In this document: in pieces, positions 18,078 to 52,132 of the stretch
Numbering within the stretch: position 1 is the first letter of the stretch
How the letters are laid out: each line of letters begins with the position of its first letter
Assembly: GCF_000027125.1 (NCBI RefSeq)
Contig: NC_017626.1
Source of the DNA: Escherichia coli 042
GTDB taxonomy: Bacteria; Pseudomonadota; Gammaproteobacteria; Enterobacterales; Enterobacteriaceae
DNA length: 64,000 bases
Direction: 5' to 3' (one strand)
Translations under genes and position numbers: made by a program
The notes under the pieces: generated by a model
What the model saw: only the letters and a program-made list of their open reading frames with translations
Databases searched by the model: none
Told to the model about the DNA's origin: nothing

Positions 18078-18403
18078 AATTCACTCATGAAAATGAGTTC
18101 AGAGAACCGCGAGATTTTTAATTTTGCGGTTTTTTTGCATTTAAATCCCGCTATTTCTCTGTTCAATGATTTTACTCTGGCGTAAGTGCGTGATTCTCGC
18201 TTGTTGTCTCATTTATTAAAATTCAATAATGATATCGAACCATTCAGCTTAAATATATTTTCTGAGAATGATTTTATATTGATTAAATGAATGTATATTT
18301 CATATTGATTTTGTTTGTTATTATTTAAGTGGGGTATATAATTAGAGTCCGTTATCAGTACTAAATATTCTAATCATCATGACAGGCGAGGGAGTGTCCG
18401 ATT

Positions 18404-19189
18404 ATGAATTCAAAAAAGGTTTGTTGCATATGTGTGTTATTCTCGCTGCTTGCAGGATGTGCCTCTGAATCTCCTATTGATGAAAAAAAGAAAAAAGCTC
18501 AAGTTACACAAAGTAATATTAATAAAAACACTCCCCCGCAACTGACAGACAAAGATTTATTCGGTAATGAAACCACTCTGGCTGTATCCGAGGAGGATAT
18601 TCAAGCTGCGCTTGAAGGAGATGAGTTTCGTGTGCCCCTCAGTTCTCCTGTAATACTTGTTCAGTCTGGTAGTCGCGCACCGGAAACCATTATGCAGGAG
18701 GAGATGAGAAAATATTATACAGTTGCCACATTTTCTGGCATTCCTGACAGGCAAAAAACTTTAACCTGTAATAAAGACAAAAACAAAGATGAAAGCCTAG
18801 ATATTGTAGATGCCGAAAATATGAACTGGATGCAGGCATTGCGTTTTGTTGCAGCAAAAGGCCATCAGAAAGCAATTATTGTTTTCCAGGATACGTTGCA
18901 GACAGGAAAATATGACTCTGGATTAAAATCAATAGTTTGGACAGATTATAAAAATCAAAAATTGACTGACACGATGTCACTGCGTTATTTGGTTCGATTC
19001 ACGCTGGTGGATGTGGCTACAGGTGAGTGGGCTACCTGGTCGCCTGTGAATTATGAATCGAAACTGATTTTTCCGCAGATAGGGAATAAAAATTCTGACA
19101 GCCTTGATGTGGCAGAACAGCAGATTTCACAACTTAAGCAGAAAACGTACGCAGCAGTGGTTAAAGACCTGGTGAATCGATATCAGTAG
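18404..19189 (+). CDS. yafT: Lipoprotein YafT
   Basis: 261 aa; signal peptide with lipobox LLAGC; AT-rich gene in an AT-rich neighbourhood. Confidence 0.8.
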
Positions 19190-19528
19190 TGAGGTTTTAT
19201 ACCAGACGTTTTAGTGGTACTTAGCAGGAAAGAGCATTTTTCTTTTCTGTTTTACACTATGGAACAAGTCTGCTAATTAATTTTACATATATTTTTTAGG
19301 AGTAGTAAAAATTTTCCTCAAGTTATTTGTTGTCCTCTCAACATATAAGCTGTAGTTCGAGTTTTCGGTTGAACTGTCAAAAATACATCACATACATCTA
19401 TAAAACAGCAGGTACGGTTAATTAAGAATTTTTATTCGTGATTAACCGTACTTTGTCATTTTATCCTATAATGTTAAATTGCCTTTTTAAAATATAACAA
19501 TAATGCAGATGAAAGACTCCCAGGTAAC

Positions 19529-20008
19529 TTAGAAAATCCGTTCACTCCACAGACTGTACGCACTGGTTCCGGCGACGATGTGCTCCCAGTTGATGCTCTC
19601 ATAGGTAAATGACACAGACTCTTCCGGCTGCCCTGGGCTGTCGTTAATGGTATGGGGAACGGTAAGGCCGATGTTTGAGATCCGGGCATTAGTCAGTTTC
19701 AGCTTGTAGTACGGCTCATTAATACCAAAACGGTTGGTGCGATAGAAGACAAAATCACAGGTCAGACATTCATTCTCCGAAATGGCCTTGCCCAGAAGGG
19801 GGGAGGATTTGTCCACCGGTTTCGTGATAGTCAGTTCCTGGTGATTGACGTTCTGTGCGCGACTCAGCCCATGGGACAGTGACATCACCATGATCTGATC
19901 CTGATGTGCAATCTGGGCCTTGTTACCGATGGACGGCATTGACGAGCATCCGGATGAAATCAGTCCCTGGAGTTCTCCGTTTAGTGTCAGATAGACGGGA
20001 TTTGCCAT
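19529..20008 (-). CDS. hcp: Type VI secretion tube protein Hcp (TssD), second copy at the distal end of the main T6SS operon
   Basis: The ORF track's 288 aa form is an N-terminal over-extension. An Hcp-like 159 aa protein starts at MANPVYLTLNGELQG with an AGGAGA ribosome-binding site upstream of the ATG at 20008. Confidence 0.8.
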   Translation of the reverse strand: MANPVYLTLNGELQGLISSGCSSMPSIGNKAQIAHQDQIMVMSLSHGLSRAQNVNHQELTITKPVDKSSPLLGKAISENECLTCDFVFYRTNRFGINEPYYKLKLTNARISNIGLTVPHTINDSPGQPEESVSFTYESINWEHIVAGTSAYSLWSERIF

Positions 20009-20025
20009 TGTTATTCTCCTTAACC

Positions 20026-21384
20026 TCAATGAGTCGGATGGACAGGTTCGGTTCTGGTATCCGTTGCCATATCCTGTCCGGTATTTTTCAGCAGTAGCCA
20101 GCGGCTTAACAGCCCGTCCAGCCGTTCGTTGATCTCTTTTTCCAGCGCCTGTGTGTCCTGCTTCCGTGCGCGTGTCTCCTGGTACTGTGTCAGCAGGTAC
20201 TCCAGCGGTGTTTCCTGATTCAGTAACCGTTCGGCCTGCCAGGTCACCGTCTTGATATACGAGAGGGTGAAACCCTGTTTCTCCGTCTCCTTTTTCATCA
20301 TCAGATCCGCAAAGTCCCGCAAATTCTGCCGCGCCTGTTGCCAGCCCTTCATCTGCGGACTGGCTTGCGCCCGGTTTCTCAGCGTGTTGCTCCACATCCT
20401 GCTGGCTTCCTGCTGTTGCAGGCTTTCCGGCCAGAGGGTGTCTGCGGTGCGCATCATCTGCATTCCGGTTTCCAGCGGCTGTAGTGGCGGGGCATCCAGA
20501 AGCTGTTGCAGGTACTGTTCATATTCTTTCAGTACCGGGGAGGCCAACCAGGCGGTGGCGGCTCCCTGTGCGGTATCCCTGACTTGCGTAAGCTGCCGTT
20601 GTATCGGATACGCCTGCCACCACCAGAGTACTGCCGCGATAACGGCAGTACAGGCGGCACCGGCAACAAAACCTTTTACCGTGCTGCCCTGTCTAACGTT
20701 GTCGGCGTTATTTGCCACACCGCGCACCTCCACCCGCATTTCCGGCAGGTCGGGCAGGGGAGGCACGGCTTCCGCTGTGGTGGAAGCCGTGCTTTCCGGC
20801 GCATAGACCAGCGTCCGGACCGTGGTCTGTGCCGCCGTATCAGTACGGTTTCCGGGCTGCGGCTCAAACCGCTTGCGTGTGTTCTGCACAAAATAAAGCA
20901 GGTTTTCCACGCGCGGCTGGCGCTTCAGTTCCACCTGCTGGAGTTTGTCGCAAATAAGCTGTAAAGCCCGTTCCGTGCGGTAGAGCAACGGCAGATCATT
21001 TTCGGAAAAGGACACCTGCTGGCGCAGAATATTCCCGGTGCGGGTATTGAACCAGTCCAGCATCTCAGTCCGCGCCGGGCCACCCTGCGGCCAGAATTTA
21101 TCCCATTCGTGGGTGATCATCGCAGCCAGCAGTTCCGAGCCTTCGCAGAACCCTGCCAGCCCCTGATTACGGGTACGCGCCAGCGTATAGTAGGTGGCGG
21201 TATGCAAATCCACCCCGTTGGCCTTAAAAATCGACAGCGCCAGCGATTCCACCAGTTTCCAGTTCAGCTCCGGCTGTGACGGGTGGTTAGCTTTGTTAAT
21301 TTCTTCGCGGATGGCGCTGAACTCCGGCAGGGCGCGCGGATCGCTGCCGGTAACGATAGTTTGTGTCAGTGCGTAATTGCTCAT
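20026..21384 (-). CDS. T6SS-associated ImpA N-terminal-domain membrane protein (VasL-like)
   Basis: The 499 aa ORF-track form overlaps tssM; the start is placed at the internal Met (MSNYALTQTIVTGSDPRALPEF) preceded by an AAGGGGA ribosome-binding site. ImpA_N-like N-terminus plus one predicted transmembrane helix (AGAACTAVIAAVLWWW). Confidence 0.6.
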   Translation of the reverse strand: MSNYALTQTIVTGSDPRALPEFSAIREEINKANHPSQPELNWKLVESLALSIFKANGVDLHTATYYTLARTRNQGLAGFCEGSELLAAMITHEWDKFWPQGGPARTEMLDWFNTRTGNILRQQVSFSENDLPLLYRTERALQLICDKLQQVELKRQPRVENLLYFVQNTRKRFEPQPGNRTDTAAQTTVRTLVYAPESTASTTAEAVPPLPDLPEMRVEVRGVANNADNVRQGSTVKGFVAGAACTAVIAAVLWWWQAYPIQRQLTQVRDTAQGAATAWLASPVLKEYEQYLQQLLDAPPLQPLETGMQMMRTADTLWPESLQQQEASRMWSNTLRNRAQASPQMKGWQQARQNLRDFADLMMKKETEKQGFTLSYIKTVTWQAERLLNQETPLEYLLTQYQETRARKQDTQALEKEINERLDGLLSRWLLLKNTGQDMATDTRTEPVHPTH

Positions 21385-21394
21385 CACTATCCCC

Positions 21395-24300
21395 TTAATA
21401 CAACGTATCCGGTAAACGGAACAGGCTGAACAGACCGCCGGTGAACGGGTTATCTTCGGTATCCACATGCACCCGGTAAACCATTGCGCCGCCGTCCACG
21501 TTAAAGCGCACGTTAAAGGTGTCACTGGTCACATTGGTCAACTGGCCCGCGCCGAACAGGCGGAACTGCGCCCACGGTCCACTGAACGCGATACTGTGCG
21601 GTGCTCTGCCGCTGGTGCCAATCAGCGTCAGCTTGCTTTCATTGCCTTCACGCATGTTGTTCGGCCAGACCAGATGGGCGGTGTAGTTGCGTCCCTGGCT
21701 GTAGTCCACTAACTGGCCGTCCAGGTTAAGTACGCTGCGCCGCTTATTGCCGGAAAGCGATACGGTTTCCACGGCAAACTGTGCGCCCAGCCCGTTCTGC
21801 TGGCTGAAGAAGATGTCGCGGATTTTCTGCGCGGTATCCAGTTGCTGCCGGATATCTTCACGGATTAACACTCTGCCGTCGTCGCCAAAGGTCAGATCGT
21901 TTTCAAGGAACAGGCGCAGGTTGTTCTTGTAGAAATTGTCCAGAATGCCATCCGGTTTAAAGAAACGTTCAAACGAATCCAGTGAGGCATCCTGTGTGGC
22001 GCGCGGATTAAACGGATAGTTATCGGCAAGCTGCTCGTTGAAGGGTTTCACTACATTGTCGCGCCAGTCCACTTCCATGTAACGAACGGCTTCCACCATC
22101 ACCACATGCCAGGCCTGATCCGCGAGCTTACCTACCCAGCGGTTAAGCGGTGCAGGGAGAGTTTTTGCCATCTGGCGGGTAGCGAAGATTGGATCGCTGC
22201 TGTTTTGATCCAGACGTAGCTGTACTGCTTTCAGCGCCGATTTCCCCGGCACTGGCGAGTTCTGGATCGCCAGCAGGTAACGGTGCAGCTCGGTCAGTTG
22301 CTGGTACACGGCCTGTAGCGTACTCGCCTTGTCCTTTTGCTCCTCCAGTGCGCTGTTTTCCGGTGCGAACTCATGCCCCAGCCGGGATAACAGGCGGTAA
22401 TCCATCTCATTTATTGCCGCTTCCCTCGCCTTATCATCCAGTTTGCCGGAGAGCGTCAGCGCGTGGGTATTATCGCGCAGCGCCGTCAGCGCACGCTGGA
22501 ATGGCTGATCGCCGCTGATAATCTGCTCCAGCGCGTCGGTCAGCGCCGACATGGCCTCATAGTCACGGACGTTGAGGTTATCCATTCCGGCACGCCAGGT
22601 GGCGGTATAGTCACTGATGTACTGTTCGGTGATATGGCGCTGGATCTCTTCACGGTCGGCCTCGCTGTAGGCGACGCTTTGCGTCAGGTTCAGTACCCAC
22701 GAATCCAGCGCGGTCAGCTCAACGAGGCCCTCACGCTGTTTGACAAAATAGCTTTGCAGTCCATAGCGGGTGAGGAACTGCGGGATCACCAGTTTTTCAT
22801 CATTACCGGCGACGAACACGTTGTCGAAGGTGGGACCAACCTGGTCGCGCAAATTCAAATCGGCGGGCAACACGCTTAATGCTTTGGTGCGCAGGGTCTG
22901 GTAGACACGCTGGTATATGGGCAGCTTGCTCAGTTCCTGCTGCGCATTAATGACCGGTTTATCATAGGGGGTCCAGCGGCTGACAGCATCGCTGTCACCG
23001 CTCTGGCGCTGCGCGTGCCAGTCGGTGTGCTCCAGCGCATAGTCCAGATGCGCCATCAGTTGCGCCTGAATATCGCGCTGGCCGTGAAATTCATTGCTCC
23101 AGCGCCGCGCCATGTACTGTTTTACCGCCTCGTTGTTGCGCCCACTTTTGTCTTCCATCATGCGCAGTACGCGCAGCACGGCGAGCTTTTCTTCGCTCTC
23201 TGGCGGGGCATTGTTTAGATCCCGGATCAGGCCGTTCATTAACGAGGGGAGATAACGCTGCTCAAGAAGCTGAATGTAGGTTTGCTCCACATACGGCCCT
23301 ACGCGGACGCCCTGGTACAATCCCATATCCGCCAGAAAACCGCGATCGCGGTAATCGCCATAGGCCAGGGTGGCATCGCGTACCGGATTAAGCAACGACA
23401 GTTGCAGATTGCCGAATTCATCCGTTCCTTGCGGTGGTGGTACGTCCATAAAGGCTTTAGCCTGTGCCAGTACGTTAACGCCGGACTGCCAGTTCTGATT
23501 GTAATAATGGTGCCAGCTTCCGACCAGCAATGCCGCCAGCGCCGCGCCACAGGCGGAAAAGGCGGTCAGCCTGCGCCGGGAGCTGTTCAGCCAGACGCTG
23601 TTTTCACCCGCCAGGTTCGGCTCAGCCAGCAGGACTTCAGGGAAGAGGCGGCGAGTAAAATACGGCGTCGTCTCCACCAGAGGCCAGGTTGCCAGCGAGC
23701 TGTTACCCAGCCCGTACTGGCGGGCGGCGGACTGCGTGAAAATATCATCCACCTGGCCACGCTGTAGCGATGATGTGAGCCAGACGCCACGCAGCATTAC
23801 ATCCATGTTCTCACCGTCCAGCAATGCGGCGAGCAGTGCGGTGACGATTTCTCCTGTTCCCTGCATCTGACGGGAGAAGCTGAACACGGCGCTGCGGGGA
23901 GCAGCACCGGTTTGTGCGAGCATCAGATCCGACAGCGCCAGGTTCACCTGTTGTACCCACGTCTGCCAGAAAGCCCCCAGTTCGCTGCGCCAGTCGTCAC
24001 TTTCATGGGCGCGGCGGGTAAACGTGACGCCGAGGATCGCATCGCGGTCTTTTTTATCCAGTGAATGGAACAGCGCGGCAAAGCCGGTCAGCAGATCCAG
24101 CCGTGTCAGCACCACGTAAACGGGCAGACGGCAGTGCAGACTCTGGCGGATCTCCTGAAGTTGCTGGCGCAAATTTTGTACCAGTGTCTCACGGCGGGAT
24201 TTATCCGCCGTCAGCAGATCGGGAAGATCGAGCGTCAGGATCAGGCCGTTGAGCGGCTGGCGCGCGCGCGTTTGCATCAGCCAGCCCAGCCAGTGTTCGC

Positions 24301-24922
24301 GCAGGCGGCGGTGGAGCAGATCATCCCCGCCGGGCGAGGTCAGTACGCCGTCAACATCGAAAATCACCGCTTGGTTGCCCACTCGCGGTGTGATCAGCGG
24401 ATGGTATTCCGTACCCCGGATGCTTTCCGGCGTGTAAATAATGTCAGATGGAAAGCCCTCGCGCAGCAGAGCGCTTTTACCGCTACCCGCAGGACCAATG
24501 ACCATATACCACGGCAACTGCCACAGATAACGGCGGTTATCCAGATGGCGGCGCAGGCGCAGCAGCCAGTGATCCAGATATTGCTGCTGGCGGTGGAGTT
24601 CCACGGTCAACGGATCTTTTTCTTCCTCCCGCTGCTGTTTCTGCTGTTTTTCCAGCTTTTGCAGACGCTTCATTACCCGCCAGGTGAGCCAGATCAGAGC
24701 GATAAGCCCCCAGACGGCGGTCGCCAGCCAGCGGTTTGTTAGAGGAGCCAGCCAGTGCTGCTCATAGAGCGTCCATTTCGGACCTTGCCACCAGATCCAC
24801 ACCAGCAGAAAAATCCATGCCAGCGCCAGCAGCCAGGCGGCGGATACCCTGAATCGCGGCATCGCTGGCCTGAGAGCAGATCTCAGCGTGCTGAACAGTC
24901 GGGATGTCGGAAATCTGAACAC
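21395..24922 (-). CDS. tssM: T6SS membrane complex protein TssM (IcmF)
   Basis: 1175 aa; N-terminal transmembrane helices, Walker A GPAGSGKS, large periplasmic C-terminal domain; IcmF-family architecture. Confidence 0.9.
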   Translation of the reverse strand: MFRFPTSRLFSTLRSALRPAMPRFRVSAAWLLALAWIFLLVWIWWQGPKWTLYEQHWLAPLTNRWLATAVWGLIALIWLTWRVMKRLQKLEKQQKQQREEEKDPLTVELHRQQQYLDHWLLRLRRHLDNRRYLWQLPWYMVIGPAGSGKSALLREGFPSDIIYTPESIRGTEYHPLITPRVGNQAVIFDVDGVLTSPGGDDLLHRRLREHWLGWLMQTRARQPLNGLILTLDLPDLLTADKSRRETLVQNLRQQLQEIRQSLHCRLPVYVVLTRLDLLTGFAALFHSLDKKDRDAILGVTFTRRAHESDDWRSELGAFWQTWVQQVNLALSDLMLAQTGAAPRSAVFSFSRQMQGTGEIVTALLAALLDGENMDVMLRGVWLTSSLQRGQVDDIFTQSAARQYGLGNSSLATWPLVETTPYFTRRLFPEVLLAEPNLAGENSVWLNSSRRRLTAFSACGAALAALLVGSWHHYYNQNWQSGVNVLAQAKAFMDVPPPQGTDEFGNLQLSLLNPVRDATLAYGDYRDRGFLADMGLYQGVRVGPYVEQTYIQLLEQRYLPSLMNGLIRDLNNAPPESEEKLAVLRVLRMMEDKSGRNNEAVKQYMARRWSNEFHGQRDIQAQLMAHLDYALEHTDWHAQRQSGDSDAVSRWTPYDKPVINAQQELSKLPIYQRVYQTLRTKALSVLPADLNLRDQVGPTFDNVFVAGNDEKLVIPQFLTRYGLQSYFVKQREGLVELTALDSWVLNLTQSVAYSEADREEIQRHITEQYISDYTATWRAGMDNLNVRDYEAMSALTDALEQIISGDQPFQRALTALRDNTHALTLSGKLDDKAREAAINEMDYRLLSRLGHEFAPENSALEEQKDKASTLQAVYQQLTELHRYLLAIQNSPVPGKSALKAVQLRLDQNSSDPIFATRQMAKTLPAPLNRWVGKLADQAWHVVMVEAVRYMEVDWRDNVVKPFNEQLADNYPFNPRATQDASLDSFERFFKPDGILDNFYKNNLRLFLENDLTFGDDGRVLIREDIRQQLDTAQKIRDIFFSQQNGLGAQFAVETVSLSGNKRRSVLNLDGQLVDYSQGRNYTAHLVWPNNMREGNESKLTLIGTSGRAPHSIAFSGPWAQFRLFGAGQLTNVTSDTFNVRFNVDGGAMVYRVHVDTEDNPFTGGLFSLFRLPDTLY

Positions 24923-24941
24923 GGTAACTCCTTGTTATCTT

Positions 24942-26384
24942 TTACTGTTCTGCCGTGAATTTTTGTTCCAGTGCTTCCAGCAGGGACGGTTCCCATTCGG
25001 ACAGCATCATGTGTAATCCTGTTCTGAAGAGTATCCGGTACTGCTGTTGTGCAAGCTGAACCATACCGGCCTCTTCCAGTAACTGCGCGCCGAAAAACTG
25101 GCGGTGAAACTGGTGGCGGGGATCACCTTCGGGCAGGTTTTCCAGGTACCGCAGCGCGGCTTCCAGCCCGTTTTCATCGAAGCACGCCCTGGCCGCCTGT
25201 AATTCTTCATCGGTCTGTACAACCGGGGCGGTCTGGTTGACTGAGCCGGATGATGCCAGCCACTGTTTCGTCTGTTCGGACACAAACGGAGTGCGGTCGT
25301 TAAACAACAGGTTGATCAGTGCGGGCAGGCGGGCCAGAAAACCGGTAACTTCATCACGGATAGCATCCGCCACCTGTTTATAACCGAGGCGCAGCGCGGT
25401 CTGTGCTGAGAGGTAATGACCGTCCAGCCAGTACGGGGCCAGCAGCAGGCTTTTTTCCACCTGCTGCCACAGCGCCATGTCGGCATTGTTCAGCCGCGCC
25501 AGGTAATCATCCATCATATCGACAGGGAAGGCTGCCAGTGGGGTCCGGCCATCGCTTTCTGCCTGCGGGGTACTGGTGATGGTCTGCCACAGAGCATGGC
25601 GGCGCAGTCGGTAACCCTGCGGTGACTCCGGCTGGCGCTCACAGAGAATGGCGGCCACCTTCAGCAGGGTGTCGCGCCATGCTTTATCGTCGTGGCTGTC
25701 AACAGTGACCTGCGGGATTGGAGTGGCTGCAACAGGAGGCTGAGCGGCAACCGTGTGCGGTGACATATCCGGTACAGATCCGGCTGTGGCCTGCGGCGCA
25801 ATGGCGGCGGTTCGTGCAGATGATGGCATTTCAGGCGCTACATCACGAAACGCGCGCTGAAACAGGGCAAATAAATCGTCTGTCGCCTTAGCCAGCTCAG
25901 GAGCGTTGTGCGCCTGCCAGCACTGTGCCAGTTTTGCCAGCTCTCCCAGCAAAGCATCGCGCTGTATTGTCGCAGCATTCCCGGCAAAGTCCTGAACGGC
26001 AGACTCAAAGCGTTTTATCACCTGGGCGGCAAAGCGTTTTTTGTGGGCCATGTTCTGCGGTGCGGCGCATGTCCAGTAGTGTTCTGTATATTGTGCCAGC
26101 ATCCTGGAGGCCAGCAGAATATCACCGGCATGTTGCAGGGTACGCAGCAGGTGGGCCAGCAGGCGAAAATCTTTGGTTTCTGAGGCCAGAAGCATCAGGC
26201 CCCGGCGCTGAAGTTCCGGGATATCAAGCTGGCTGTGCGCCAGTGAACCGAGCTTGACGATTTCGCTGTCGACAAACTCCCAGTCTGCATTGCCATCATC
26301 AAGCGCGGCGGACAGCTTATCTTCCGGCAGGTTTTCCAGCAGGTGTGCAAGCCATACATCGGGATTACGTAAGTCCATTGCCAT
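24942..26384 (-). CDS. tssA: T6SS protein TssA (ImpA family)
   Basis: The ORF-track start at 26450 is an over-extension into the upstream gene; start taken at MAMDLRNPDVW, preceded by a GGGAGA ribosome-binding site. ImpA-like N-terminus. Confidence 0.8.
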   Translation of the reverse strand: MAMDLRNPDVWLAHLLENLPEDKLSAALDDGNADWEFVDSEIVKLGSLAHSQLDIPELQRRGLMLLASETKDFRLLAHLLRTLQHAGDILLASRMLAQYTEHYWTCAAPQNMAHKKRFAAQVIKRFESAVQDFAGNAATIQRDALLGELAKLAQCWQAHNAPELAKATDDLFALFQRAFRDVAPEMPSSARTAAIAPQATAGSVPDMSPHTVAAQPPVAATPIPQVTVDSHDDKAWRDTLLKVAAILCERQPESPQGYRLRRHALWQTITSTPQAESDGRTPLAAFPVDMMDDYLARLNNADMALWQQVEKSLLLAPYWLDGHYLSAQTALRLGYKQVADAIRDEVTGFLARLPALINLLFNDRTPFVSEQTKQWLASSGSVNQTAPVVQTDEELQAARACFDENGLEAALRYLENLPEGDPRHQFHRQFFGAQLLEEAGMVQLAQQQYRILFRTGLHMMLSEWEPSLLEALEQKFTAEQ

Positions 26385-26388
26385 ATTC

Positions 26389-27132
26389 TTATTCTCCCGC
26401 CCAGTGGCAGGCGTCGCGTAGCGGCGCAATAACCCGTGCCAGCCCGTCAATGTTAAAGGTCAGCTTTCCGGCGGCGTTGTCTGTGTCGGTATCCACCGTC
26501 AGCGTTTTTGCGCCGAACAGTTGCTTAATTTCATCGATACCGGATAACCCCCGGCTGGACTCCAGCAGGGTGCCGTTCTCGCGCACAAACCAGTGGCTGC
26601 GTAATGCCCGGCTGTCGGCATTCAGGGTGACGGCGATATCATGGACATCCAGAGGGTGCATCAGCGCCACCTGCATCCGGGTGATATTGTCCACGCAACT
26701 GAACATCAGCACCGGGCGCGGCGGAACATGGCCGATAGCCGGGGTGGTTATCACTACCGTCGGGCGTTCACCCGGCACCTGCGTCACCAGCAGCCCTGTG
26801 GTATTGCCCTGGCGGCGTTTTTCCTGCTCTGTGGCGCGGGTCCAGGCTTCGCCCTGGTAACGGGCTTTCACCAGTGCAGCCCCACCAAAGGCTGGCTGCT
26901 CTGGCGAAAGAATGCGGTCATAACAGTCAAGCCGCTCCAGCGCCGCAGGCTCCCGCCGACAGGACCGCATGGACTGTAACGTGGCTGCCGCATCCGAAGG
27001 TGTCGCTGTTGCAGCGGCTACCGCCACACCGGCCATTGACGATGTTTCTGCGGGCGCGGCACTGGCGGGTAAGCCCGCCATCAGGCCCGCGATAAACCAT
27101 CCTGTCTGCAGGAAAACGCGCAACCTGCTCAT
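26389..27132 (-). CDS. T6SS-associated secreted protein (VasI/TagO-like)
   Basis: 247 aa with N-terminal signal peptide (FIAGLMAGLPASAAPA); sits between clpV and tssA as in other T6SS clusters; 4 bp overlap with the clpV stop. Confidence 0.55.
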   Translation of the reverse strand: MSRLRVFLQTGWFIAGLMAGLPASAAPAETSSMAGVAVAAATATPSDAAATLQSMRSCRREPAALERLDCYDRILSPEQPAFGGAALVKARYQGEAWTRATEQEKRRQGNTTGLLVTQVPGERPTVVITTPAIGHVPPRPVLMFSCVDNITRMQVALMHPLDVHDIAVTLNADSRALRSHWFVRENGTLLESSRGLSGIDEIKQLFGAKTLTVDTDTDNAAGKLTFNIDGLARVIAPLRDACHWAGE

Positions 27133-29861: not shown

Positions 29862-29870
29862 AAGATGTCC

Positions 29871-40337: not shown

Positions 40338-40346
40338 ATCTGAGTC

Positions 40347-40382
40347 AACAACATCCTGCCTTCGTGCAGGATGTTGTTTTTG
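40347..40382 (+). terminator. Rho-independent terminator/attenuator between hcp and vgrG
   Basis: Long perfect hairpin CAACAACATCCTGC..GCAGGATGTTGTTG followed by a T-run. Confidence 0.8.
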
Positions 40383-40557
40383 TACGTGTAAAAAATGAGT
40401 GTCAGTAAGGAGTTACGCTTTCATGAGGGAGATGGCGGATGCCGGAAACCCGGGCGGTAGCGTACCTGAAAATGTAAAGATGAGTGTAACGCTGCACTGG
40501 CACCCTTTGCTGCATGGTAAGAATCATTTGGTCCGTGAATAAATCAGGGAGGTCATT

Positions 40558-43355: not shown

Positions 43356-43376
43356 AAAGACAAACGGATAGATTAT

Positions 43377-44948
43377 ATGACATCTCCATCTTCGACAGCC
43401 GGAAAGCCCTGTGTGGAATGCGGCATTCCTGATCCATGTATTTTTGATGTTATTAGTGATTTTCCAGAGGCCGGCGAGAAACATTTCTGGTCAAAAGAAG
43501 GAGTGGCGCGTTTTAAGCTACTGGATGATGGTTCCGGATGTGATGGTATAATTACCATTACCTACCAGTGCGATAAAAGTGGAACACATGAGGCATGGTT
43601 AGAGGAAGAATCAGAAAATAATCATAAGATACTGCAACCTTTCGGAATACCTAATAAGGTCACTTTGGATGATAACTTGTCTGAAGGTGAAATAATTGCT
43701 ATGGGTACATTTCGAGTACCATGGGATTATTTGGGGGCAATATCCTCTCCACTTAAGAATCATTATGAACCTGCCCATTATTCAGTCAGAATTGACAGTT
43801 GTTACGAATGTGGCAATTATGTTGAAATTGATGTTTATCCTACAGTGGAAATTAGGTTTACTACAGGGTTCAGCTATGAGATTTCGTCATCAAAACAGAC
43901 GAGAACAGTAAAAGAGCGGCGTGACGAAAGAATAAAAGCCAGGGACGCAATGGAGAACACCAAGCCCAGGGATAAAAATAAACTCCGTAGCGGCTGGACA
44001 AATACCACTGCTGAGTTTGAGTGGATAAACAAGACTTCCCTGACTGTCGATTTTGGCGTAAAAATAGCTAATGTTGAACACACAAGTGAATATGAAAAAG
44101 AGATAAAAAAACTTCGACAAACAAAGCAACTGGAACAGATAGGAAGAATTGACTCTCTGGTCAAGAATGTCAATAAATATTTTGCGCCAGATCCTGACAA
44201 TAATAATGGTACGCGCAAATATGCATTGTTCAGTGCAAAAATAGAACCCGTTAAACTGGGTATATCGTATGCCTATCAATATACCGATATCCAGGATGGC
44301 CCCTGTCATTTTTATGGTTTGTTTGGTGCCCCATTTTTTGAAGCGTCGTTCAGATTCGATATTATTTCATTTATATGTGCATATTGTAAAGTCGAGTCAT
44401 TGGTCAACAGATGTCGTGAATATCTCCGTAAAAACGGAGCCAGTGTTGAATGCTATATCGAGATTTCAGCGGAGATTAATCTTGATCTTGGCGCAGTATA
44501 CGCTGAAAAGGATAAAAAATGGGAGTTTAATGTAAAGGAAAGTAACATCAAGCTCGGTTTAAAAGGTGTGGTGAGTGCGACGTTTGAGGCGAATGTTTTT
44601 GTTGTACAACTGACCGCCGAAGCGACTGCCTCTATAGAAGCGAAAGCTGGATTTGGATTTGATTCACATGATGACGGACTGGACCTAGCATTATTTCATG
44701 ACGGCATTAAAGGGAAGTTTGAATTTAAGATTGATGTGTCTCATGGTGAAGTTGATGAAAAAGGAAAGGGGAAGGAAAAGAGCGAAAAACCTGAGAAGAA
44801 AGATACCGTTGAGTGGCAGTTATGTGATCCTATGGAGGTAAAGGATTCACCATTACGGGTTAATTTATACGGTAAAGAACGCACTGTGGAGAAAAAAGTA
44901 ACACCGCCGAAGCCAGTGACAACGTGGACGATAGGTATGGATTATTAA
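43377..44948 (+). CDS. Hypothetical protein, candidate T6SS cargo effector of unknown activity
   Basis: 523 aa, no signal peptide, Cys-rich N-terminal third, Lys/Glu-rich C-terminal tail; directly downstream of vgrG and the DUF4123 adaptor. No recognisable catalytic motif seen by eye. Confidence 0.55.
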   Translation: MTSPSSTAGKPCVECGIPDPCIFDVISDFPEAGEKHFWSKEGVARFKLLDDGSGCDGIITITYQCDKSGTHEAWLEEESENNHKILQPFGIPNKVTLDDNLSEGEIIAMGTFRVPWDYLGAISSPLKNHYEPAHYSVRIDSCYECGNYVEIDVYPTVEIRFTTGFSYEISSSKQTRTVKERRDERIKARDAMENTKPRDKNKLRSGWTNTTAEFEWINKTSLTVDFGVKIANVEHTSEYEKEIKKLRQTKQLEQIGRIDSLVKNVNKYFAPDPDNNNGTRKYALFSAKIEPVKLGISYAYQYTDIQDGPCHFYGLFGAPFFEASFRFDIISFICAYCKVESLVNRCREYLRKNGASVECYIEISAEINLDLGAVYAEKDKKWEFNVKESNIKLGLKGVVSATFEANVFVVQLTAEATASIEAKAGFGFDSHDDGLDLALFHDGIKGKFEFKIDVSHGEVDEKGKGKEKSEKPEKKDTVEWQLCDPMEVKDSPLRVNLYGKERTVEKKVTPPKPVTTWTIGMDY

Positions 44949-45014
44949 GTGATATTACAGAAATTAAAAGTGAACAGTATAATGAGTATTTTCCCCTTTT
45001 GAGAGAGAATAATT

Positions 45015-46025
45015 ATGAAGGCAAAACATTTAATATCGGTTATTTTACTGTCAGGAGTTGTTATGGGAACTGGATTTTGCTCTAACGATAACCAGCAAAA
45101 AATTCGCAGTAAGTTTAATATTGAAGAGTCATATTGTGCCATTAAGACTAATGGCGTCCTCGGGTTCAGTAACCGAAGAAGTGCCTGGCGGGCAAATGGT
45201 GATTCAACCGGGGCCATATCCAGCACCAATGCCATGATGCTGATGGCGAATGGAGAAAATGAAATCAGTCTGGAGATTGGGGCATTAGGATGGTTTTCTG
45301 ACAAGCCTGCCAGTATGGAAGAACGGGGGCGTTTTTTTCCAAAAGCAGGATGCAGCCTGGATTTGGTTCGTTTTATTAAACAGGAGGAAACGCTGCTTTC
45401 TTCAATAAAAGTGACCATCAACCAGCAGGGCATACCTGAAGCCCGGCCAGACAGCGTGCATCCCGTTATCCGGAAAGAGATTTTGGCTGAGCAGGCGGAG
45501 CCAGGATTTATTGATCCAGATTATTTTGATGAAACCTATTTCCCGAAAGGGATGAAGGTGTATCAGTTCACTCAAAAAGTTACCGTGACAGGGCTTCCTG
45601 AATGGGCCTGGACGCGGGCAACCCCCTATACCGGAAGCGACGAGCAGTTACGGAAGTTAAAAGCCGCCTATACCGAAATGGCAAGCATCATCAGTAGCCG
45701 GGACAGGGCACGTCTGAAAGCTTATAACAAAGAGGCGCTGAAGGCATGGTCAGCCACAACCGGTGACTCTGAGGATGACATATTACTCTCACTCTTCTCA
45801 AAAGATAATGTGGAGGGAGGGAAAGCCAGAATGCAGCCCATCAGGTGGGACGATTATGCCGTCCGGGTTATGAATGGTGGACGTATGGTGCAGCTATATA
45901 ATAAATCGAAACCAATATATTCCCCACTGACTTACCGTTTTACAGATGAAAGTGGTGAAGAGCGTATGGGGTATTACGCTCCGGTATTTTCGCTGATTGA
46001 TGGTCAGTTTATCCCTGTTACTTGA
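45015..46025 (+). CDS. Hypothetical exported protein, candidate cognate immunity protein
   Basis: 336 aa with N-terminal signal peptide (MKAKHLISVILLSGVVMGTGFC); immediately downstream of the candidate effector. Confidence 0.5.
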   Translation: MKAKHLISVILLSGVVMGTGFCSNDNQQKIRSKFNIEESYCAIKTNGVLGFSNRRSAWRANGDSTGAISSTNAMMLMANGENEISLEIGALGWFSDKPASMEERGRFFPKAGCSLDLVRFIKQEETLLSSIKVTINQQGIPEARPDSVHPVIRKEILAEQAEPGFIDPDYFDETYFPKGMKVYQFTQKVTVTGLPEWAWTRATPYTGSDEQLRKLKAAYTEMASIISSRDRARLKAYNKEALKAWSATTGDSEDDILLSLFSKDNVEGGKARMQPIRWDDYAVRVMNGGRMVQLYNKSKPIYSPLTYRFTDESGEERMGYYAPVFSLIDGQFIPVT

Positions 46026-46337
46026 TTAACCTGTTGGGCTACAAATCAGGATGTCCGGTAAGGTGATTATTACTGAGTTAAGCACCTTACCGTTTTTTAA
46101 ATTTTTTGTCGCTGATATTCCAGACAGGAAAACAATATGCCTTTAGCTGCCAGATTAAACGACAAAGGTACCGGCACAGGGAAAGATCACGTAACGCTGC
46201 TTTTTTGTACTAAATAATTCGCATTTTATGTTTAAAATTTGAGATATTCCTCATTACCTGAGGCTGTTTTTTATTACTTATACATGATCAAATACTCCTT
46301 ACATAATTAAGGGGAACAAAATGGAACTTAAAAATTG

Positions 46338-47262
46338 ATGGAACATATTTCTGTTATTCCCGATTACAGACAAGCCTGGAAAGTGGAACATAAATTGTCG
46401 GATATTCTACTGTTGACTATTTGTGCCGTTATTTCGGGTGCAGAAGGTTGGGAAGATATAGAGGATTTTGGGGAAACACATCTCGATTTTTTAAAACAAT
46501 ACGGTGATTTTGAAAATGGTATTCCTGTTCACGATACCATCGCCAGAGTTGTATCCTGTATCAGTCCTGCAAAATTTCACGAGTGCTTTATTAACTGGAT
46601 GCGAGATTGCCATACTTCAGATGATAAAGACGTCATCGCAATTGATGGAAAAACGCTCCGGCACTCTTATGACAAGAGTCGCCGCAGGGGAGCGATTCAT
46701 GTCATTAGTGCGTTCTCAACAATGCACAGCCTGGTCATCGGACAGATCAAGACGGATGAGAAATCCAATGAGATTACAGCTATCCCAGAACTTCTTAACA
46801 TGCTGGATATTAAAGGAAAAATCATCACAACTGATGCGATGGGTTGCCAGAAAGATATTGCAGAGAAGATACAAAAACAGGGCGGTGATTATTTATTCGC
46901 TGTAAAAGGAAATCAGGGGCGGCTTAATAAAGCCTTTGAGGAAAAATTCCCACTGAAAGAATTAAATAATCCAGAGCATGACAGTTACGCAATGAGTGAA
47001 AAGAGTCACGGCAGAGAAGAAATCCGTCTTCATATTGTTTGCGATGTCCCTGATGAACTTATTGATTTCACGTTTGAATGGAAAGGACTGAAGAAATTAT
47101 GCGTGGCAGTCTCCTTTCGGTCCATAATAGCAGAACAAAAGAAAGAGCCAGAAATGACGGTCAGATATTATATCAGTTCTGCTGATTTAACCGCAGAGAA
47201 GTTCGCCACAGCAATCCGAAACCACTGGCACGTGGAGAATAAGCTGCACTGGCGTCTGGACG
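46338..47262 (+). CDS. ISAs1-family transposase (H-repeat-associated protein), exon 1 of intron-interrupted gene
   Basis: Matches the intact copy at 49523..50659 up to ...[14 protein letters not shown] 1 nt shorter A-run than in copy 2 removes the MELKKL leader, so the start shifts to the ATG at 46338. The ORF-track tail [10 protein letters not shown] is intron-encoded read-through. Confidence 0.75.
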
Positions 47263-49153
47263 GTGTGCCGCAGGAACACAAGATAGCTGCATAAGGATAC
47301 GCAGTTAGCTTTTGTATAAGCTCATAAAGAGATGGTGGAAGGCCCACCGGGATCGGCTGTCGGAAGCAGATTCCAAACCACTTCATGCTGCTGTGGTAAA
47401 GAGCCATGGTAGTGAGCGATGAAGTAAAGCGTGAGTGAAAACTCAGCAGGTAAGATACTCATGAGACGAGTGAACCCGAACCCATGTTGACGCGTCGTAA
47501 ACCAGAGACTGACATCAAAACCGAAGGGGCGTCCAGCCTTCGGGATAAGTCTGCGAGTGAATTCCGAATGCTGCGCAGACGGTGTCCGGCGTAAAGTGGG
47601 CGTGACGGAGTATCAGGCTCTTCCTGGGAACTGCGGGAACCTGTCGTTGTGATGATAAGGGAGAAATGCAAGTCACTGAATTGGCGAGCATGAAAGTACC
47701 GATGCACAGCACAGGGACGGAGCCGTTCGTAGTAGTGATGAAGCTTCTGTAATGGAGGTGGAGCGAAGGGGCGGCATCAGACAGTCTTTGGACAGTGTTC
47801 AACTGAACATGTTCAGGAGGAGACAATGACAAAGACAAAAGCGTTTAACATTGATAAGTCACTGGTGGTCAGCGCGTACAGGCGAGTGAAGACCAGTGCA
47901 GGCGCGGCGGGAATTGATAAGCAATCGCTGGCGGACTTTGATAAACGGTTAGTTGATAATCTGTACAAAATCTGGAACCGACTTTCTTCAGGAAGTTATT
48001 TCCCACCGGCAGTGAAAGCGGTGGCAATTCCGAAGAAATTGGGTGGAGAGAGAATTCTGGGTATCCCGACAGTCAGCGATCGTATCGCGCAGACGGTGGT
48101 AAAACTGGCCTTTGAGCCACAGGTTGAGCCACATTTTCTGGCAGACTCTTACGGCTACAGACCGAATAAATCGGCACTGGATGCTATAGGGGTAACGCGT
48201 AAGCGTTGCTGGTATTACGACTGGGTACTGGAATTTGACATCAAAGGGCTGTTCGATAACATCCCGCACGAACTGATAATGAAAGCCGTGGACAAACACA
48301 ATCCGGCCCGGTGGGTAAAATTGTATATACAGCGGTGGCTGACAGCGCCGATGGTGATGTCAGACGGAGAAGTCAGAGCACGAACAATGGGAACGCCGCA
48401 GGGAGGTGTCATAAGTCCGTTGCTGGCAAACCTGTTCATGCATTATGTGTTTGATAAATGGCTGGCAAAATATTATCCGAAAGTGCCGTGGTATCGATAT
48501 GCTGATGATGGCATTTTGCATTGTCACAGCGAAGCAGAAGCGACTGAAATGCGAGAAGTATTACGCAAAAGATTTAGCGAATGCGGACTGGAAATGCATC
48601 CGGAGAAAACGCGAGTTATCTACTGCAAAGATGGAAGCCGGAAGGGTGATTATGAACATACCATGTTCGACTTTCTGGGGTACACATTCAGGCGACGCGT
48701 AGTAAAGAACGTTAAGCGAAACAGTCTGTTTGTAAGTTTTACCCCCGCAGCGAGCAAATCAGCGCTAAAGGCAATGCGTCGGGAAATCAAAGCGACAGGG
48801 ATAAGGAAAAGAGTGGATTTAAGCATTGAGCAGATAGCGAAATGGATAAATCCAAAACTGAATGGCTGGATAAATTATTACGGGCGATATACCTGTTCGG
48901 AATTATACAGCGTGTTCAGATATATCAATAAAGCACTGGTGAGGTGGGGGCGTAAGAAATATAAAATGCTCAGCCGATACAAGACAAGAGCCTCAAAATT
49001 TCTGGAAGAAATGGCGAAGCGAAGTCCACAGTTGTTTGCCCACTGGCGTCTGAAGATGAGAGGCGGACTTGTTTGATGGGAGCGGTATGAGCCGAGAGGT
49101 TCACGTACCGTTCTGCGAGAGGCTGCGGGGGAGGTTCCTGCGGCCTACTCACC
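47263..49153 (+). mobile_element. Group II intron (about 1.9 kb) inserted in the transposase gene
   Basis: Insert begins GTGTG (GUGYG consensus), contains the RT/maturase ORF in the position of domain IV, has a domain V-like hairpin (GAGCGGTATGAGCCGAGAGGTTCACGTACCGTTC, about 49080..49114) and ends just before the exon 2 sequence seen in the intact copy. Boundaries are good to about 1 nt. Confidence 0.8.
47826..49076 (+). CDS. Group II intron-encoded reverse transcriptase/maturase
   Basis: 416 aa; RT motifs including YADD ([11 protein letters not shown]) and a C-terminal maturase (domain X) region. Confidence 0.88.
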
Positions 49154-49347
49154 TGGTAATGAATGAAGACGACTGCAAAATAAGAAGAGGAAATGCAGCA
49201 GAATTATTTTCAGGGATACGGCACATCGCTATTAATATTTTGACGAATGATAAGGTATTCAAGGCAGGGTTAAGACGTAAGATGCGAAAAGCAGCCATGG
49301 ACAGAAACTATCTGGCGTCAGTCCTTGCGGGGTGCGGGCTTTCGTAA
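49154..49347 (+). CDS. ISAs1-family transposase, exon 2 (C-terminal 64 codons)
   Basis: Encodes [63 protein letters not shown], nearly identical to the C-terminus of the intact copy; joins exon 1 in frame. Confidence 0.75.
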
Positions 49348-49378
49348 TCTTTCCCTGGATGTGAAAAGCAGCTGCGGA

Positions 49379-50669
49379 CAGGGAAAGATCATCAGAAGTA
49401 CACTTTTTGTACTAAACAATTCGCATTTTATGTTTAAAAATTGAGATATTCCTCATTACCTGAAGCTGTTTTTTATTGCTTATACATGATCAAATACTCC
49501 TTACATAATTAAGGAGAACAAAATGGAACTTAAAAAATTGATGGAGCATATTTCTATTATCCCCGATTACAGACAAGCCTGGAAAGTGGAACATAAATTA
49601 TCGGATATTCTACTGTTGACTATTTGTGCCGTTATTTCTGGTGCAGAAGGTTGGGAAGATATAGAGGATTTTGGGGAAACACATCTCGATTTTTTGAAGC
49701 AATATGGTGATTTTGATAATGGTATTCCTGTTCACGATACCATTGCCAGAGTTGTATCCTGTATCAGTCCTGCAAAATTTCACGAGTGCTTTATTAACTG
49801 GATGCGTGACTGCCATTCTTCAGATGATAAAGACGTCATTGCAATTGATGGAAAAACGCTCCGACACTCTTATGACAAGAGTCGCCGCAGGGGAGCGATT
49901 CATGTCATTAGTGCGTTCTCAACAATGCACAGCCTGGTCATCGGACAGATCAGGACGGATGAGAAATCTAATGAGATTACAGCTATCCCTGAACTTATTA
50001 ACATGCTGGATATTAAAGGAAAAATCATCACAACTGATGCGATGGGTTGCCAGAAAGATATTGCAGAGAAGATACAAAAACAGGGAGGTGATTATTTATT
50101 CGCTGTAAAAGGAAACCAGGGGCGGCTAAATAAAGCCTTCGAGGAAAAATTTCTGCTGAAAGAATTAAATAATCCAGAGCATGACAGTTACGCAATTAGT
50201 GAAAAGAGTCACGGCAGAGAAGAAATCCGTCTTCACATTGTTTGCGATGTCCCTGATGAACTTATTGATTTCACGTTTGAATGGAAAGGTCTGAAGAAAT
50301 TATGCGTGGCAGTCTCCTTTCGGTCAATAATAGCAGAACAAAAGAAAGAGCCCCAAATGACGGTCAGATATTATATCAGTTCTGCTGATTTAACCGCAGA
50401 GAAGTTCGCCACAGCAATCCGAAACCACTGGCACGTGGAGAATAAGCTGCACTGGCGTCTGGACGTGGTAATGAATGAAGACGACTGCAAAATAAGAAGA
50501 GGAAACGCAGCAGAATTATTTTCAGGGATACGGCACATTGCTATTAATATTTTGACGAATGATAAGGTATTCAAGGCAGGGTTAAGACGTAAGATGCGAA
50601 AAGCAGCCATGGACAGAAACTACCTGGCGTCAGTCCTTGCGGGGAGCGGGCTTTCGTAATCTTGCCCTG
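49379..50669 (+). mobile_element. ISAs1-family (H-repeat) insertion sequence, copy 2 (intact), in tandem 21 bp after copy 1
   Basis: Inverted repeats CAGGGAAAGATCATC and TTCGTAATCTTGCCCTG at the ends; 1291 bp. Confidence 0.8.
49523..50659 (+). CDS. ISAs1-family transposase (H-repeat-associated protein), intact
   Basis: 378 aa, [50 protein letters not shown]...; DDE-type H-repeat transposase. Confidence 0.88.
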
Positions 50670-50778
50670 GTACAGTAAACAAACGAAAGTTGTTATTTCA
50701 ATGGTCAGGGCAAGAGCATGAAGTGTTTACTACACACTATGCTCTTGTCCTGGAGTCAGGTCTTGTTTGGAGGGATAA

Positions 50779-51282
50779 ATGGTAGATATTGTCGAGGCCG
50801 ATAAAACGGATATTTATTTCATTCAGGAGAGTGTTTATGGCAAAATCGGGTTGCCAGCTTTTGGTAATACAATAGGACCATCCGCACAGCAAGTTGTTAA
50901 AAAGGTATTCGCTGTCGTTAAAGAACGAGATAAGACACATGCAAAACAGAGATTATTGTTGGAATATAATGGTAACAAACTCTGGATGAATGCTATTGAT
51001 GGCAGTGAAGCTATCCTACCAACAGAATTTTCTAAGCGATACGAACTTTCATTATTTAATACTACTAATTTTGGAGAAGATCCTTTTCCTGATGTTAATT
51101 TATATAATAATATGAAATCAAGTTTTTTTGTAAGGTTTGGTGGAACATCCCATCCCGAGGCTTGGGCTATTTATAATGCAAGTACGAAAGAGGTTAAATA
51201 TATAGAAACTGCAAGAGAAATTGATAAAATATTCAGTGATTTTAACTTGAGTGGTACATTGCCAATTCACATTGGTCGATGA
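50779..51282 (+). CDS. Hypothetical protein (no signal peptide), AT-rich
   Basis: 167 aa ORF just right of the IS pair; no recognisable motif; may correspond to the small ORFs that sit between yafT and yafF in E. coli K-12 (unverified). Confidence 0.4.
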   Translation: MVDIVEADKTDIYFIQESVYGKIGLPAFGNTIGPSAQQVVKKVFAVVKERDKTHAKQRLLLEYNGNKLWMNAIDGSEAILPTEFSKRYELSLFNTTNFGEDPFPDVNLYNNMKSSFFVRFGGTSHPEAWAIYNASTKEVKYIETAREIDKIFSDFNLSGTLPIHIGR

Positions 51283-51348
51283 TTTTTTAAATTGTGTGAT
51301 TAAATAATTGAACATTAATGATGATTTATAGCATTATTATTCTATAAC

Positions 51349-51861
51349 ATGAATAAACGGATTGAATGTGTTATGTTAAAAATAAGTTTATACGTAATAA
51401 TATTGTTATTTTCCTTTCAGATTAGTGCAGCCATTACTAGCAAGGAAAGTGAGGTTGTTTCACCATTATTAATGGATGTTAATTCTTCACTAACAATGGA
51501 AAATATTTCTGAATTATCCACATCATCGGAACCATCGCAACAGGGGGTATTTCCTGTAATATGTACTCGACTTCATCCTGGCTCCGTAATGAAACGCCAG
51601 TTATTAACCGGCTGGGGGCCTGTTTTTATAATTGGTGATGATCCTTTTTCTCTGCGCTGGATGAGTGAACATCTGGAGATCCTTAAATCGCTAAATGCCC
51701 TTGGTTTGGTTGTTAATGTTGAATCAGTAGAACGAATGGAGGTATTACAGCAGCGGGCTGATGGGTTATTGTTATTGCCAGTTATCTGCGATAATTTCGT
51801 GCAAACTCTGCAATTAAATGCTTATCCGGTATTAATCACAGAGATGGAAATATCACAATGA
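51349..51861 (+). CDS. Hypothetical exported/membrane protein
   Basis: 170 aa with N-terminal hydrophobic signal (MLKISLYVIILLFSFQISAA); AT-rich; identity not resolved. Confidence 0.4.
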   Translation: MNKRIECVMLKISLYVIILLFSFQISAAITSKESEVVSPLLMDVNSSLTMENISELSTSSEPSQQGVFPVICTRLHPGSVMKRQLLTGWGPVFIIGDDPFSLRWMSEHLEILKSLNALGLVVNVESVERMEVLQQRADGLLLLPVICDNFVQTLQLNAYPVLITEMEISQ

Positions 51862-51887
51862 TTAATAACATAATTACTGCAAATAAT

Positions 51888-52102
51888 ATCGTAATTTTGA
51901 AAATGGTAATCCTGTTCACGGCACCATAATTAGAGTTATGTCTTGTATCCGTTCAGTATAATTTCACGAATGCTTTATTAACTGGATGCGAGATTGCCAT
52001 TCATCAAATGATAAAGACGTCATCGCAATTGATGGAAAAGCGCTTCCACACTCCTATGATAAAAGTGGTCGCAGGGGAGCGGGCTTTCGTAGTCTTAGCC
52101 CG
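51888..52102 (+). pseudogene. yafF: Internally deleted ISAs1-family (H-repeat) remnant, yafF-like pseudogene
   Basis: Matches transposase codons roughly 55 to 118 ([35 protein letters not shown]) fused at a GGGGAGCG microhomology to the last about 20 bp of the IS right end (GGCTTTCGTAGTCTTAGCCCG). Confidence 0.75.
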
Positions 52103-52132
52103 ACTCTCCCCGGCCCTAAACACAACACCCAC

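Follow-up and report, generated by a model that had tools for sequence, protein, structure and literature searches.

A 64,000-nucleotide stretch of the Escherichia coli 042 chromosome (contig NC_017626.1), referred to here as the window, most likely holds the chromosomal type VI secretion system (T6SS) known as T6SS-2, located in the aspV-yafT/yafV hotspot. The system comprises a full contractile injection apparatus with a specialised VgrG cargo, while the PAAR gene of the cargo module has been lost. The allele is probably that of phylogroup D/B2-type extraintestinal pathogenic E. coli strains such as UMN026. The thirteen core genes, the accessory genes and vgrG carry this assignment, together with the cargo genes behind vgrG, their counterparts in other enterobacteria and the signature of purifying selection across the apparatus. 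The RefSeq genome of strain A10 (NZ_CP028764.1), identical to the window, served as the annotation guide. Many RefSeq genomes match the window at 100% identity over 24 kb, and T6SS names are attached to these genes there, for instance in A10.

Both the T6SS-2 cluster and its cargo are already known, and the system is real but ordinary. The T6SS island at aspV corresponds to LF82 PAI I (PMC2941450) and has been described in the strains LF82, 536, UTI89, APEC O1, S88, ED1a, 042 and EDL933, where it is EHEC OI-7. The counterpart in enteroaggregative E. coli (EAEC) 042 is Ec042-0210-0226, for which the genome paper reports no experimental evidence of expression (PMC2808357). The organisation and location in the window agree with those published (PMC2941450, PMC2808357), with the same site and the same gene set, namely two hcp genes, two ImpA-type genes (tssA and vasL), clpV, a gene with an FHA domain and vgrG. 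There appears to be no substantive difference from the E. coli aspV T6SS-2; the window carries the ECUMN cargo module, and its PAAR gene is truncated by an insertion sequence (IS) of the ISAs1 family. The cargo genes, ECUMN_0231 to ECUMN_0233 of uropathogenic E. coli (UPEC) UMN026, have also been published (PeerJ 2024).

Core apparatus of the T6SS-2 cluster

Gene identities were assigned with NCBIfam models and their curated cut-offs, and scores are noted as bits/cut-off. The apparatus genes and the control region are as follows.

19529..20008, minus strand: hcp (tssD), distal copy, 159 amino acids (aa); TIGR03344, 204/59
20026..21384, minus strand: VasL/TagA-type accessory protein, 452 aa; RefSeq name 'VasL domain-containing', N-terminus like TssA/ImpA_N
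21395..24922, minus strand: tssM (IcmF); TIGR03348, 942/388, model positions 2-1168 of 1168, Walker A intact
24942..26384, minus strand: tssA; TIGR03362, 454-455/230, full length
26389..27132, minus strand: vasI accessory gene; TIGR03360, 265/124
27129..29861, minus strand: tssH (clpV), AAA+ ATPase; TIGR03345, 1122/885, both Walker A and both Walker B motifs kept
29871..30626, minus strand: tssL (DotU); TIGR03349, 216/90
30649..31995, minus strand: tssK; TIGR03353, 419/100
31998..32522, minus strand: tssJ, lipoprotein; TIGR03352, 142/32, lipobox LTGC
32519..33799, minus strand: tagH, FHA-domain accessory gene; TIGR03354, 421/120
33816..34865, minus strand: tssG; TIGR03347, 350/143
34829..36670, minus strand: tssF; TIGR03359, 548/260
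36676..37101, minus strand: tssE; TIGR03357, 134/53
37106..38590, minus strand: tssC, large sheath subunit; TIGR03355, 673/271
38613..39116, minus strand: tssB, small sheath subunit; TIGR03358, 172/97
39117..39818, no strand: divergent AT-rich intergenic control region, 702 bp, 33% GC, with sigma-70-like hexamers on both strands
39819..40337, plus strand: hcp (tssD), proximal copy, 172 aa; TIGR03344, 209/59

A preliminary description of this DNA, made from the sequence alone, had reported thirteen intact core T6SS open reading frames (ORFs), and this holds. TssA to TssM are all open with one terminal stop each, and match their NCBIfam models over approximately the full length and above the cut-offs. 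Premature stops, which it had named as possible counter-evidence, are absent from every listed gene. TagH and the VasI-like protein, both proposed at the same time, likewise gave full-length matches above the cut-offs. The VasL-like assignment agrees with the RefSeq name; in NCBIfam, TssA models match this protein at its N-terminus only and under their cut-offs. A VasL-family protein at the equivalent relative position in Klebsiella oxytoca carries PF06812 and PF12486. The distal Hcp is 30% identical to the proximal one.

The two divergent operons proposed earlier are also evident, with the minus-strand unit running from tssB to hcp (39116 down to 19529) and the plus-strand unit of hcp, vgrG and cargo from 39819 onward. 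The minus-strand order is tssB-C-E-F-G-tagH-tssJ-K-L-clpV-vasI-tssA-tssM-vasL-hcp. The "many" overlaps of 4 to 13 bp described at first do exist in kind, but their number was overstated, as RefSeq starts give only four: tssF/tssG (37 nt), tagH/tssJ (4 nt), tssH/vasI (4 nt) and vgrG/DUF4123 (1 nt). Most remaining junctions are gaps of 2-22 nt, and hcp and vgrG are separated by 220 nt. The gap between tssA and tssM depends on the start chosen for tssM, measuring 109 nt with the RefSeq start, a CTG at 24832, and 19 nt with an alternative GTG at 24922. The latter is preceded by AGGAG, lies 19 nt past the tssA stop and yields a protein of 1175 aa; it is more probably the true start.

The whole apparatus is under purifying selection. 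Relative to an allele of about 96% identity (UPEC129), dN/dS ranges from 0.00 to 0.35 across all 17 genes, and relative to an allele of about 75% identity it ranges from 0.02 to 0.30 for the 14 genes with unsaturated dS.

The gene order is that of the large T6SS cluster of Vibrio cholerae (vipA/B-vasA...vasL, subtype i1), namely tssB-C-E-F-G, the FHA gene, tssJ-K-L, clpV, vasI, tssA, tssM and vasL. The V. cholerae cluster includes the sigma-54 activator VasH, whereas the window has no VasH gene and its control region no sigma-54 motif, and the cargo differs. A sigma-54 promoter as in VasH-dependent V. cholerae clusters was considered and rejected, as none was found in 39117-39818 and matches across the window were fewer than in shuffled sequence. 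The T6SS genes of enterohaemorrhagic E. coli (EHEC) have been compared to vasK, vasH, vasF, hcp and vgrG (EHEC paper).

The VgrG spike, its cargo and the truncated PAAR gene

The plus-strand unit continues from hcp into the spike gene and a short cargo module.

40558..42516, plus strand: vgrG (tssI), 652 aa; TIGR03361, 597/186, model positions 1-513 of 513
42516..43355, plus strand: DUF4123 adaptor/chaperone (RefSeq DUF4123 name), ECUMN_0231
43377..44948, plus strand: candidate effector, 523 aa, ECUMN_0232, by literature match and synteny
45015..46025, plus strand: candidate immunity protein, ECUMN_0233, 336 aa, signal peptide at the N-terminus, by literature match and synteny
46137..46172, plus strand: remnant of a PAAR gene, its first 12 codons (MPLAARLNDKGT), cut by ISAs1; from alignment to E. 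coli locus L014

In a genome 100% identical to the window, the RefSeq Prokaryotic Genome Annotation Pipeline (PGAP) flags vgrG as a pseudogene with 'missing C-terminus' (L001 36059-37960). This flag is probably wrong and vgrG full length, because the C-terminal tail is conserved to its last residues across genera. At least six genera (Salmonella, Enterobacter, Buttiauxella, Pectobacterium, Dickeya and Brenneria) share the tail of the window's VgrG (...GGSPGDVILPMRPVILKAAAGSGTMFVAHCPKEDK; ...FVAHCPKEDK), with conservation reaching the final few residues. A search for homologues of the tail returned only short or partial proteins, and the full-length comparison was therefore taken from genomic contexts, which place VgrGs of 650-656 aa ahead of this module in Pectobacterium, K. 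oxytoca, Citrobacter koseri and E. coli L014. The protein contains the Pfam domains Phage_GPD, Phage_base_V and Gp5_trimer_C (positions 1-107 of 112), giving a complete gp27-gp5 spike architecture, and its conserved tail speaks for a native C-terminus. Up to about residue 490 it is 97-99% identical to two VgrGs of the same allele and divergent beyond. The part past this point is the familiar cargo-specific C-terminal region. The vgrG stop overlaps the DUF4123 start codon (TGATG) and a ribosome-binding site, AAGGAGG, lies within the vgrG tail, a layout that suggests a native and translationally coupled junction.

The DUF4123 gene sits directly after vgrG and before the effector gene, as expected of an adaptor module. 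Its orthologues carry PF13503, with end-to-end identities of 41-52%. The same order, vgrG-DUF4123-effector-immunity, is known from modules with DUF4123 proteins (Tap-1/TEC/VasW, Tla1), in which the VgrG C-terminus co-varies with the module. The window differs from these systems in that its effector family is uncharacterised, and its match to the NCBIfam Tla1 model reaches 39.6 bits against a cut-off of 200 bits. Cargo after vgrG also varies among strains with this allele, where DUF2169 with a PAAR-like toxin or DUF4123 with Tle1 can be found instead.

The effector family is small, restricted to Enterobacterales at the sequence level, and annotated as hypothetical throughout. It is always found in a module of vgrG, DUF4123, effector and immunity gene. 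This module, with one to three immunity copies, is syntenic in Pectobacterium, K. oxytoca, C. koseri and a second E. coli lineage. In Pectobacterium brasiliense (L006 7629-11173) three tandem candidate immunity paralogues follow the effector homologue, an array of the kind typical for antibacterial toxin loci. The signal peptide printed for ECUMN_0233 (MKAKHLISVILLSGVVMG) is identical to that encoded in the window (PeerJ 2024). The same study reported transcription of vgrG and the ECUMN genes of UMN026 in LB and urine, and in-silico docking in support of the toxin-immunity pairing. When the cargo and the small ORFs nearby were compared with PADLOC defence models, no match was obtained.

An AlphaFold model of the effector has a mean pLDDT of 72 and a pTM of 0.65. 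Beta structure dominates the predicted fold, which includes several hairpins whose strands are about 20 residues long. These long antiparallel hairpins have only a generic likeness to outer-membrane beta-barrels. Combined with an immunity protein in the periplasm, the modelled fold would be compatible with damage to the envelope or membrane, possibly by pore formation, an activity undescribed for T6SS effectors. That the ECUMN_0232 family represents a toxin of the T6SS whose fold and mechanism are both new is a tentative proposal, more doubtful than probable.

Loss of the PAAR gene can be traced by comparison. All four related loci examined have a PAAR gene behind the module. It adjoins the immunity gene or genes except in K. 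oxytoca, where a few more genes intervene; in C. koseri and L014 it follows the immunity gene of the ECUMN-type module. The window aligns without a break to L014 from tssB through position 46172, where codon 12 of PAAR lies. An ISAs1 element comes next, left end first, and relative to L014 about 5.2 kb are missing, comprising the rest of the PAAR gene, a second vgrG, a DUF2169 gene and a Tox-PAAR-like gene. The word "complete", used of the system in the preliminary description, is thus correct for the thirteen core genes, and the PAAR cap, an accessory tip that is often needed, is either supplied by another part of the genome or not required. PAAR domains can also be provided in trans.

Beyond the remnant, the right end of the variable DNA consists mainly of IS-related sequence.

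46176..49358, plus strand: ISAs1-family element (H-repeat), transposase gene split by a group II intron
47263..~49153: group II intron in the ISAs1 transposase gene, GTGTG 5' end, Rfam RF01999 and RF00029 at the ends
49378..50670, plus strand: intact ISEc1 (ISAs1 family), transposase 49523-50659
50779..51282, plus strand: ORF of 167 aa, hypothetical, no family (RefSeq)
51373..51861, plus strand: ORF of 162 aa, PFL_4695-family 'ICE' (integrating-conjugative-element) protein (RefSeq)
51885..52096, plus strand: ISAs1 fragment adjoining yafV, right edge of the variable DNA (RefSeq, blastn)

The intron is supported by Rfam matches to D1-D4 (47334-47451) and domain V/VI (49078-49153), and by an intact ltrA reverse transcriptase/maturase gene (47826-49076). 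Its uninterrupted target site can be seen in the adjacent ISEc1 copy at about 50465. Both small ORFs (50779-51861) are also present at the right ends of the three other cargo variants of this allele that were compared (L004, L005 and L013), the second sometimes in a shorter form. The terminal 23 nt or so of the ISAs1 fragment (52074-52096) coincide with the end of the yafF H-repeat remnant of K-12. Complete genomes with this very right arm, cargo and IS layout included, number 194; they stem from humans, birds, cattle and wastewater.

Site, alleles and origin of the locus

The gene order of the window is rrnH-aspU, dkgB...dnaQ, aspV, yafT, the T6SS region, yafV, ivy and fadE. The landmarks of the site are listed below.

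18001..18077, plus strand: tRNA-Asp(GTC) gene aspV, left landmark, outside the variable DNA (ARAGORN, Rfam RF00005, RefSeq)
18404..19189, plus strand: yafT, lipoprotein gene with lipobox LLAGC near the N-terminus, conserved flank also present in K-12
19189..52073, no strand: DNA variable relative to K-12, 32.9 kb, with the T6SS-2 cluster, its cargo and remains of IS elements (K-12 compared with the window by blastn)
52133..52903, minus strand: yafV, conserved right flank (RefSeq, K-12 alignment)

The placement between aspV/yafT and yafV given in the preliminary description agrees with the tRNA call, the annotation and the K-12 alignment. The limits then proposed for the island, 18078-52106 or about 34 kb, have to be corrected. 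By blastn, collinearity with K-12 extends through yafT to its end at 19188 and resumes at 52074; this makes yafT part of the flank and leaves 19189-52073 as the variable DNA. Between these collinear flanks K-12 has 1.24 kb with ykfM, yafU and yafF, as against 32.9 kb in the window, which bears out the short K-12 segment with small ORFs and yafF given in the preliminary description. GC content forms a mosaic: the tss operon stands at 56%, the cargo and IS part at 42-43%, and the left flank at about 50%.

The core used for distribution counts was 20026-39116, compared by megablast with 5426 complete E. coli genomes. A homologous cluster is present in 2970 of the 5426, so that the locus is strain-variable, as claimed earlier, rather than universal. 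The best match has at least 95% identity in 551 genomes, 90-95% in 45, and about 80% or lower in 2374. The present allele, defined by a single site that holds at least 80% of the core, was found in 577 genomes.

A sister allele occupies the same site in strain D217-5, with the same gene order and about 70-80% DNA identity. Like the window, it is collinear from hcp to tssB and then continues with hcp-vgrG; unlike the window, it carries ykfM and a yafU gene of 304 aa between yafT and hcp, and Rhs cargo after vgrG. Protein identity to the window ranges from 42% (TssE) to 94% (proximal Hcp). K-12 (L003 5160-6005) and the D217-5 allele (L012 12007-13410) are 99.2% identical from aspV through ykfM. 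The match breaks inside the 304-aa gene, which is the 'yafU' pseudogene of K-12, at the point where an ISAs1 fragment (yafF) starts. Judged by this alignment, K-12 is an ISAs1-associated deletion derivative of the sister allele and not an empty site, its T6SS having apparently been lost by deletion. The K-12 genes ykfM (159 aa, the length of the distal Hcp) and yafU were also considered as diverged hcp and vasL; no similarity was found, and they are instead left-end genes of the sister allele.

The preliminary description had the cluster as an inserted island. A variable cluster at aspV is indeed present, but a simple insertion is not supported. RefSeq annotates no integrase in the window, a direct repeat of the tRNA 3' end was looked for and not found, and the ISAs1 copies are the only long direct repeats in the window. 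The features of an integrase-mediated, tRNA-linked island are thus missing, and two diverged alleles share the site. From these comparisons the locus appears to be old and allelic.

Three observations concern the flanks and the alignments. At 58659-58884 the window has about 225 bp where K-12 has about 830 bp with the toxin-antitoxin pair dinJ-yafQ (in K-12 between dpaA (yafK) and yafL), and DinJ and YafQ gave no tblastn match within the 64 kb. Five naRNA4 repeats, of the repetitive extragenic palindromic/bacterial interspersed mosaic element (REP/BIME) type, lie in the right flank (56846-56923, 59569-59646, 60312-60591) and are the cause of many short cross-matches with K-12. An apparent 7.2-kb 'insertion' in some of the 100% matches was dismissed as an artefact, since the 31,223-bp span exactly fits a join to the aspU copy 8.2 kb upstream, which presumably produced it.

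Proposed mechanism and competing explanations

In the proposed mechanism, TssJ-L-M would form the membrane complex and TssE-F-G-K the baseplate, while TssA would act as assembly cap with a TagA/VasL-type stopper. TssB-C would build the sheath around a tube of Hcp, for which there are two paralogues, with VgrG as the spike; ClpV is predicted to recycle the sheath, with TagH and VasI as accessories. The variable C-terminal third of VgrG would be matched to the DUF4123 adaptor, which in turn would load ECUMN_0232 onto the spike. ECUMN_0233, bearing a signal peptide, is expected to protect sister cells, and the toxin would therefore act in the periplasm or envelope of the target; it is the exported immunity protein that suggests this compartment. 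Insertion of ISAs1 and an adjacent deletion probably took the module PAAR and, judging by one related E. coli, a second vgrG cargo module. With the module PAAR removed, firing would need either no PAAR or one encoded elsewhere. The "apparently functional" status given in the preliminary description is, like secretion, adaptor loading, toxicity and target compartment, a prediction from the sequence.

Besides the pseudogene flag on vgrG, several points weigh against a working T6SS-2 with specialised cargo. PAAR proteins of the four related loci found no relative by tblastn in the 64-kb window, which as a PAAR tip offers just the 12-codon remnant. With no regulator gene of its own and a control region of 33% GC, the cluster may stay silent in most conditions. 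The 523-aa effector has no relative in Pfam, NCBIfam or the PDB and no recognisable toxin domain or fold. UMN026 killed an ECUMN-negative isolate and spared an ECUMN-positive one (PeerJ 2024); this competition was performed with wild types and no T6SS or effector mutants, so the killing is not tied to this cluster.

Part of this evidence would also suit an apparatus that is intact but inert and in early decay, with recent damage, in which ISAs1-driven loss of PAAR and the neighbouring vgrG module would have disabled or weakened firing. The cut at PAAR codon 12, the 5.2 kb absent relative to L014 beside the IS end, and a right end crowded by a group II intron and by ISAs1 sequence (two copies plus a fragment) all point in this direction, and the same IS family erased the whole cluster in the K-12 lineage. 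The EAEC 042 genome paper noted a lack of experimental evidence for expression of this cluster (PMC2808357). Early decay is nevertheless unlikely, as the IS-truncated arrangement is found at high identity in 194 complete genomes with every core ORF open, dN/dS is low for all genes, and, as generally known, PAAR can come in trans. Transcription of vgrG and the ECUMN genes in UMN026 (PeerJ 2024) argues in the same sense. A main role in host interaction, that is adhesion, invasion or survival in host cells, as reported for the T6SS-2 of avian pathogenic (APEC), neonatal meningitis (NMEC) and enterohaemorrhagic E. coli, is rather doubtful. T6SS-2 is usually linked to virulence (PeerJ 2024 introduction, citing Journet & Cascales), the homologous EHEC aspV cluster secretes the catalase KatN against host reactive oxygen species (EHEC paper), and the two Hcp paralogues are distinct. 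The cargo layout of adaptor, effector and signal-peptide immunity protein is canonical for antibacterial modules, however, with immunity arrays of up to three in Pectobacterium, and the ECUMN genes were unrelated to symptoms of urinary tract infection (PeerJ 2024). Host interaction and bacterial killing are also not mutually exclusive.

Recent acquisition of a mobile island by site-specific integration into aspV would be suggested by the nearby tRNA gene, the mosaic GC content and the standing of aspV as a known hotspot, which also hosts the Salmonella pathogenicity islands SPI-6 and SPI-20. This origin is very unlikely. Apart from the lack of an integrase and of a direct repeat of the tRNA 3' end, the conserved yafT separates the tRNA gene from the cluster, two alleles about 25% diverged in DNA are collinear at the same site, and K-12 provides a deletion derivative with no empty attachment site. 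The reading of the window as an established T6SS-2 locus, whose module PAAR has been lost, is thus preferred.

The value of the locus as a discovery is small, given that the island has been described since about 2009-2010 and the cargo of this allele since 2024. What remains of interest is the effector ECUMN_0232, still uncharacterised, the IS-truncated PAAR gene and the pseudogene call on vgrG, which is likely false and affects pipelines that score T6SS completeness. Strains with this arrangement, lacking the module PAAR, constitute a natural test of the need of T6SS-2 for a cognate PAAR.

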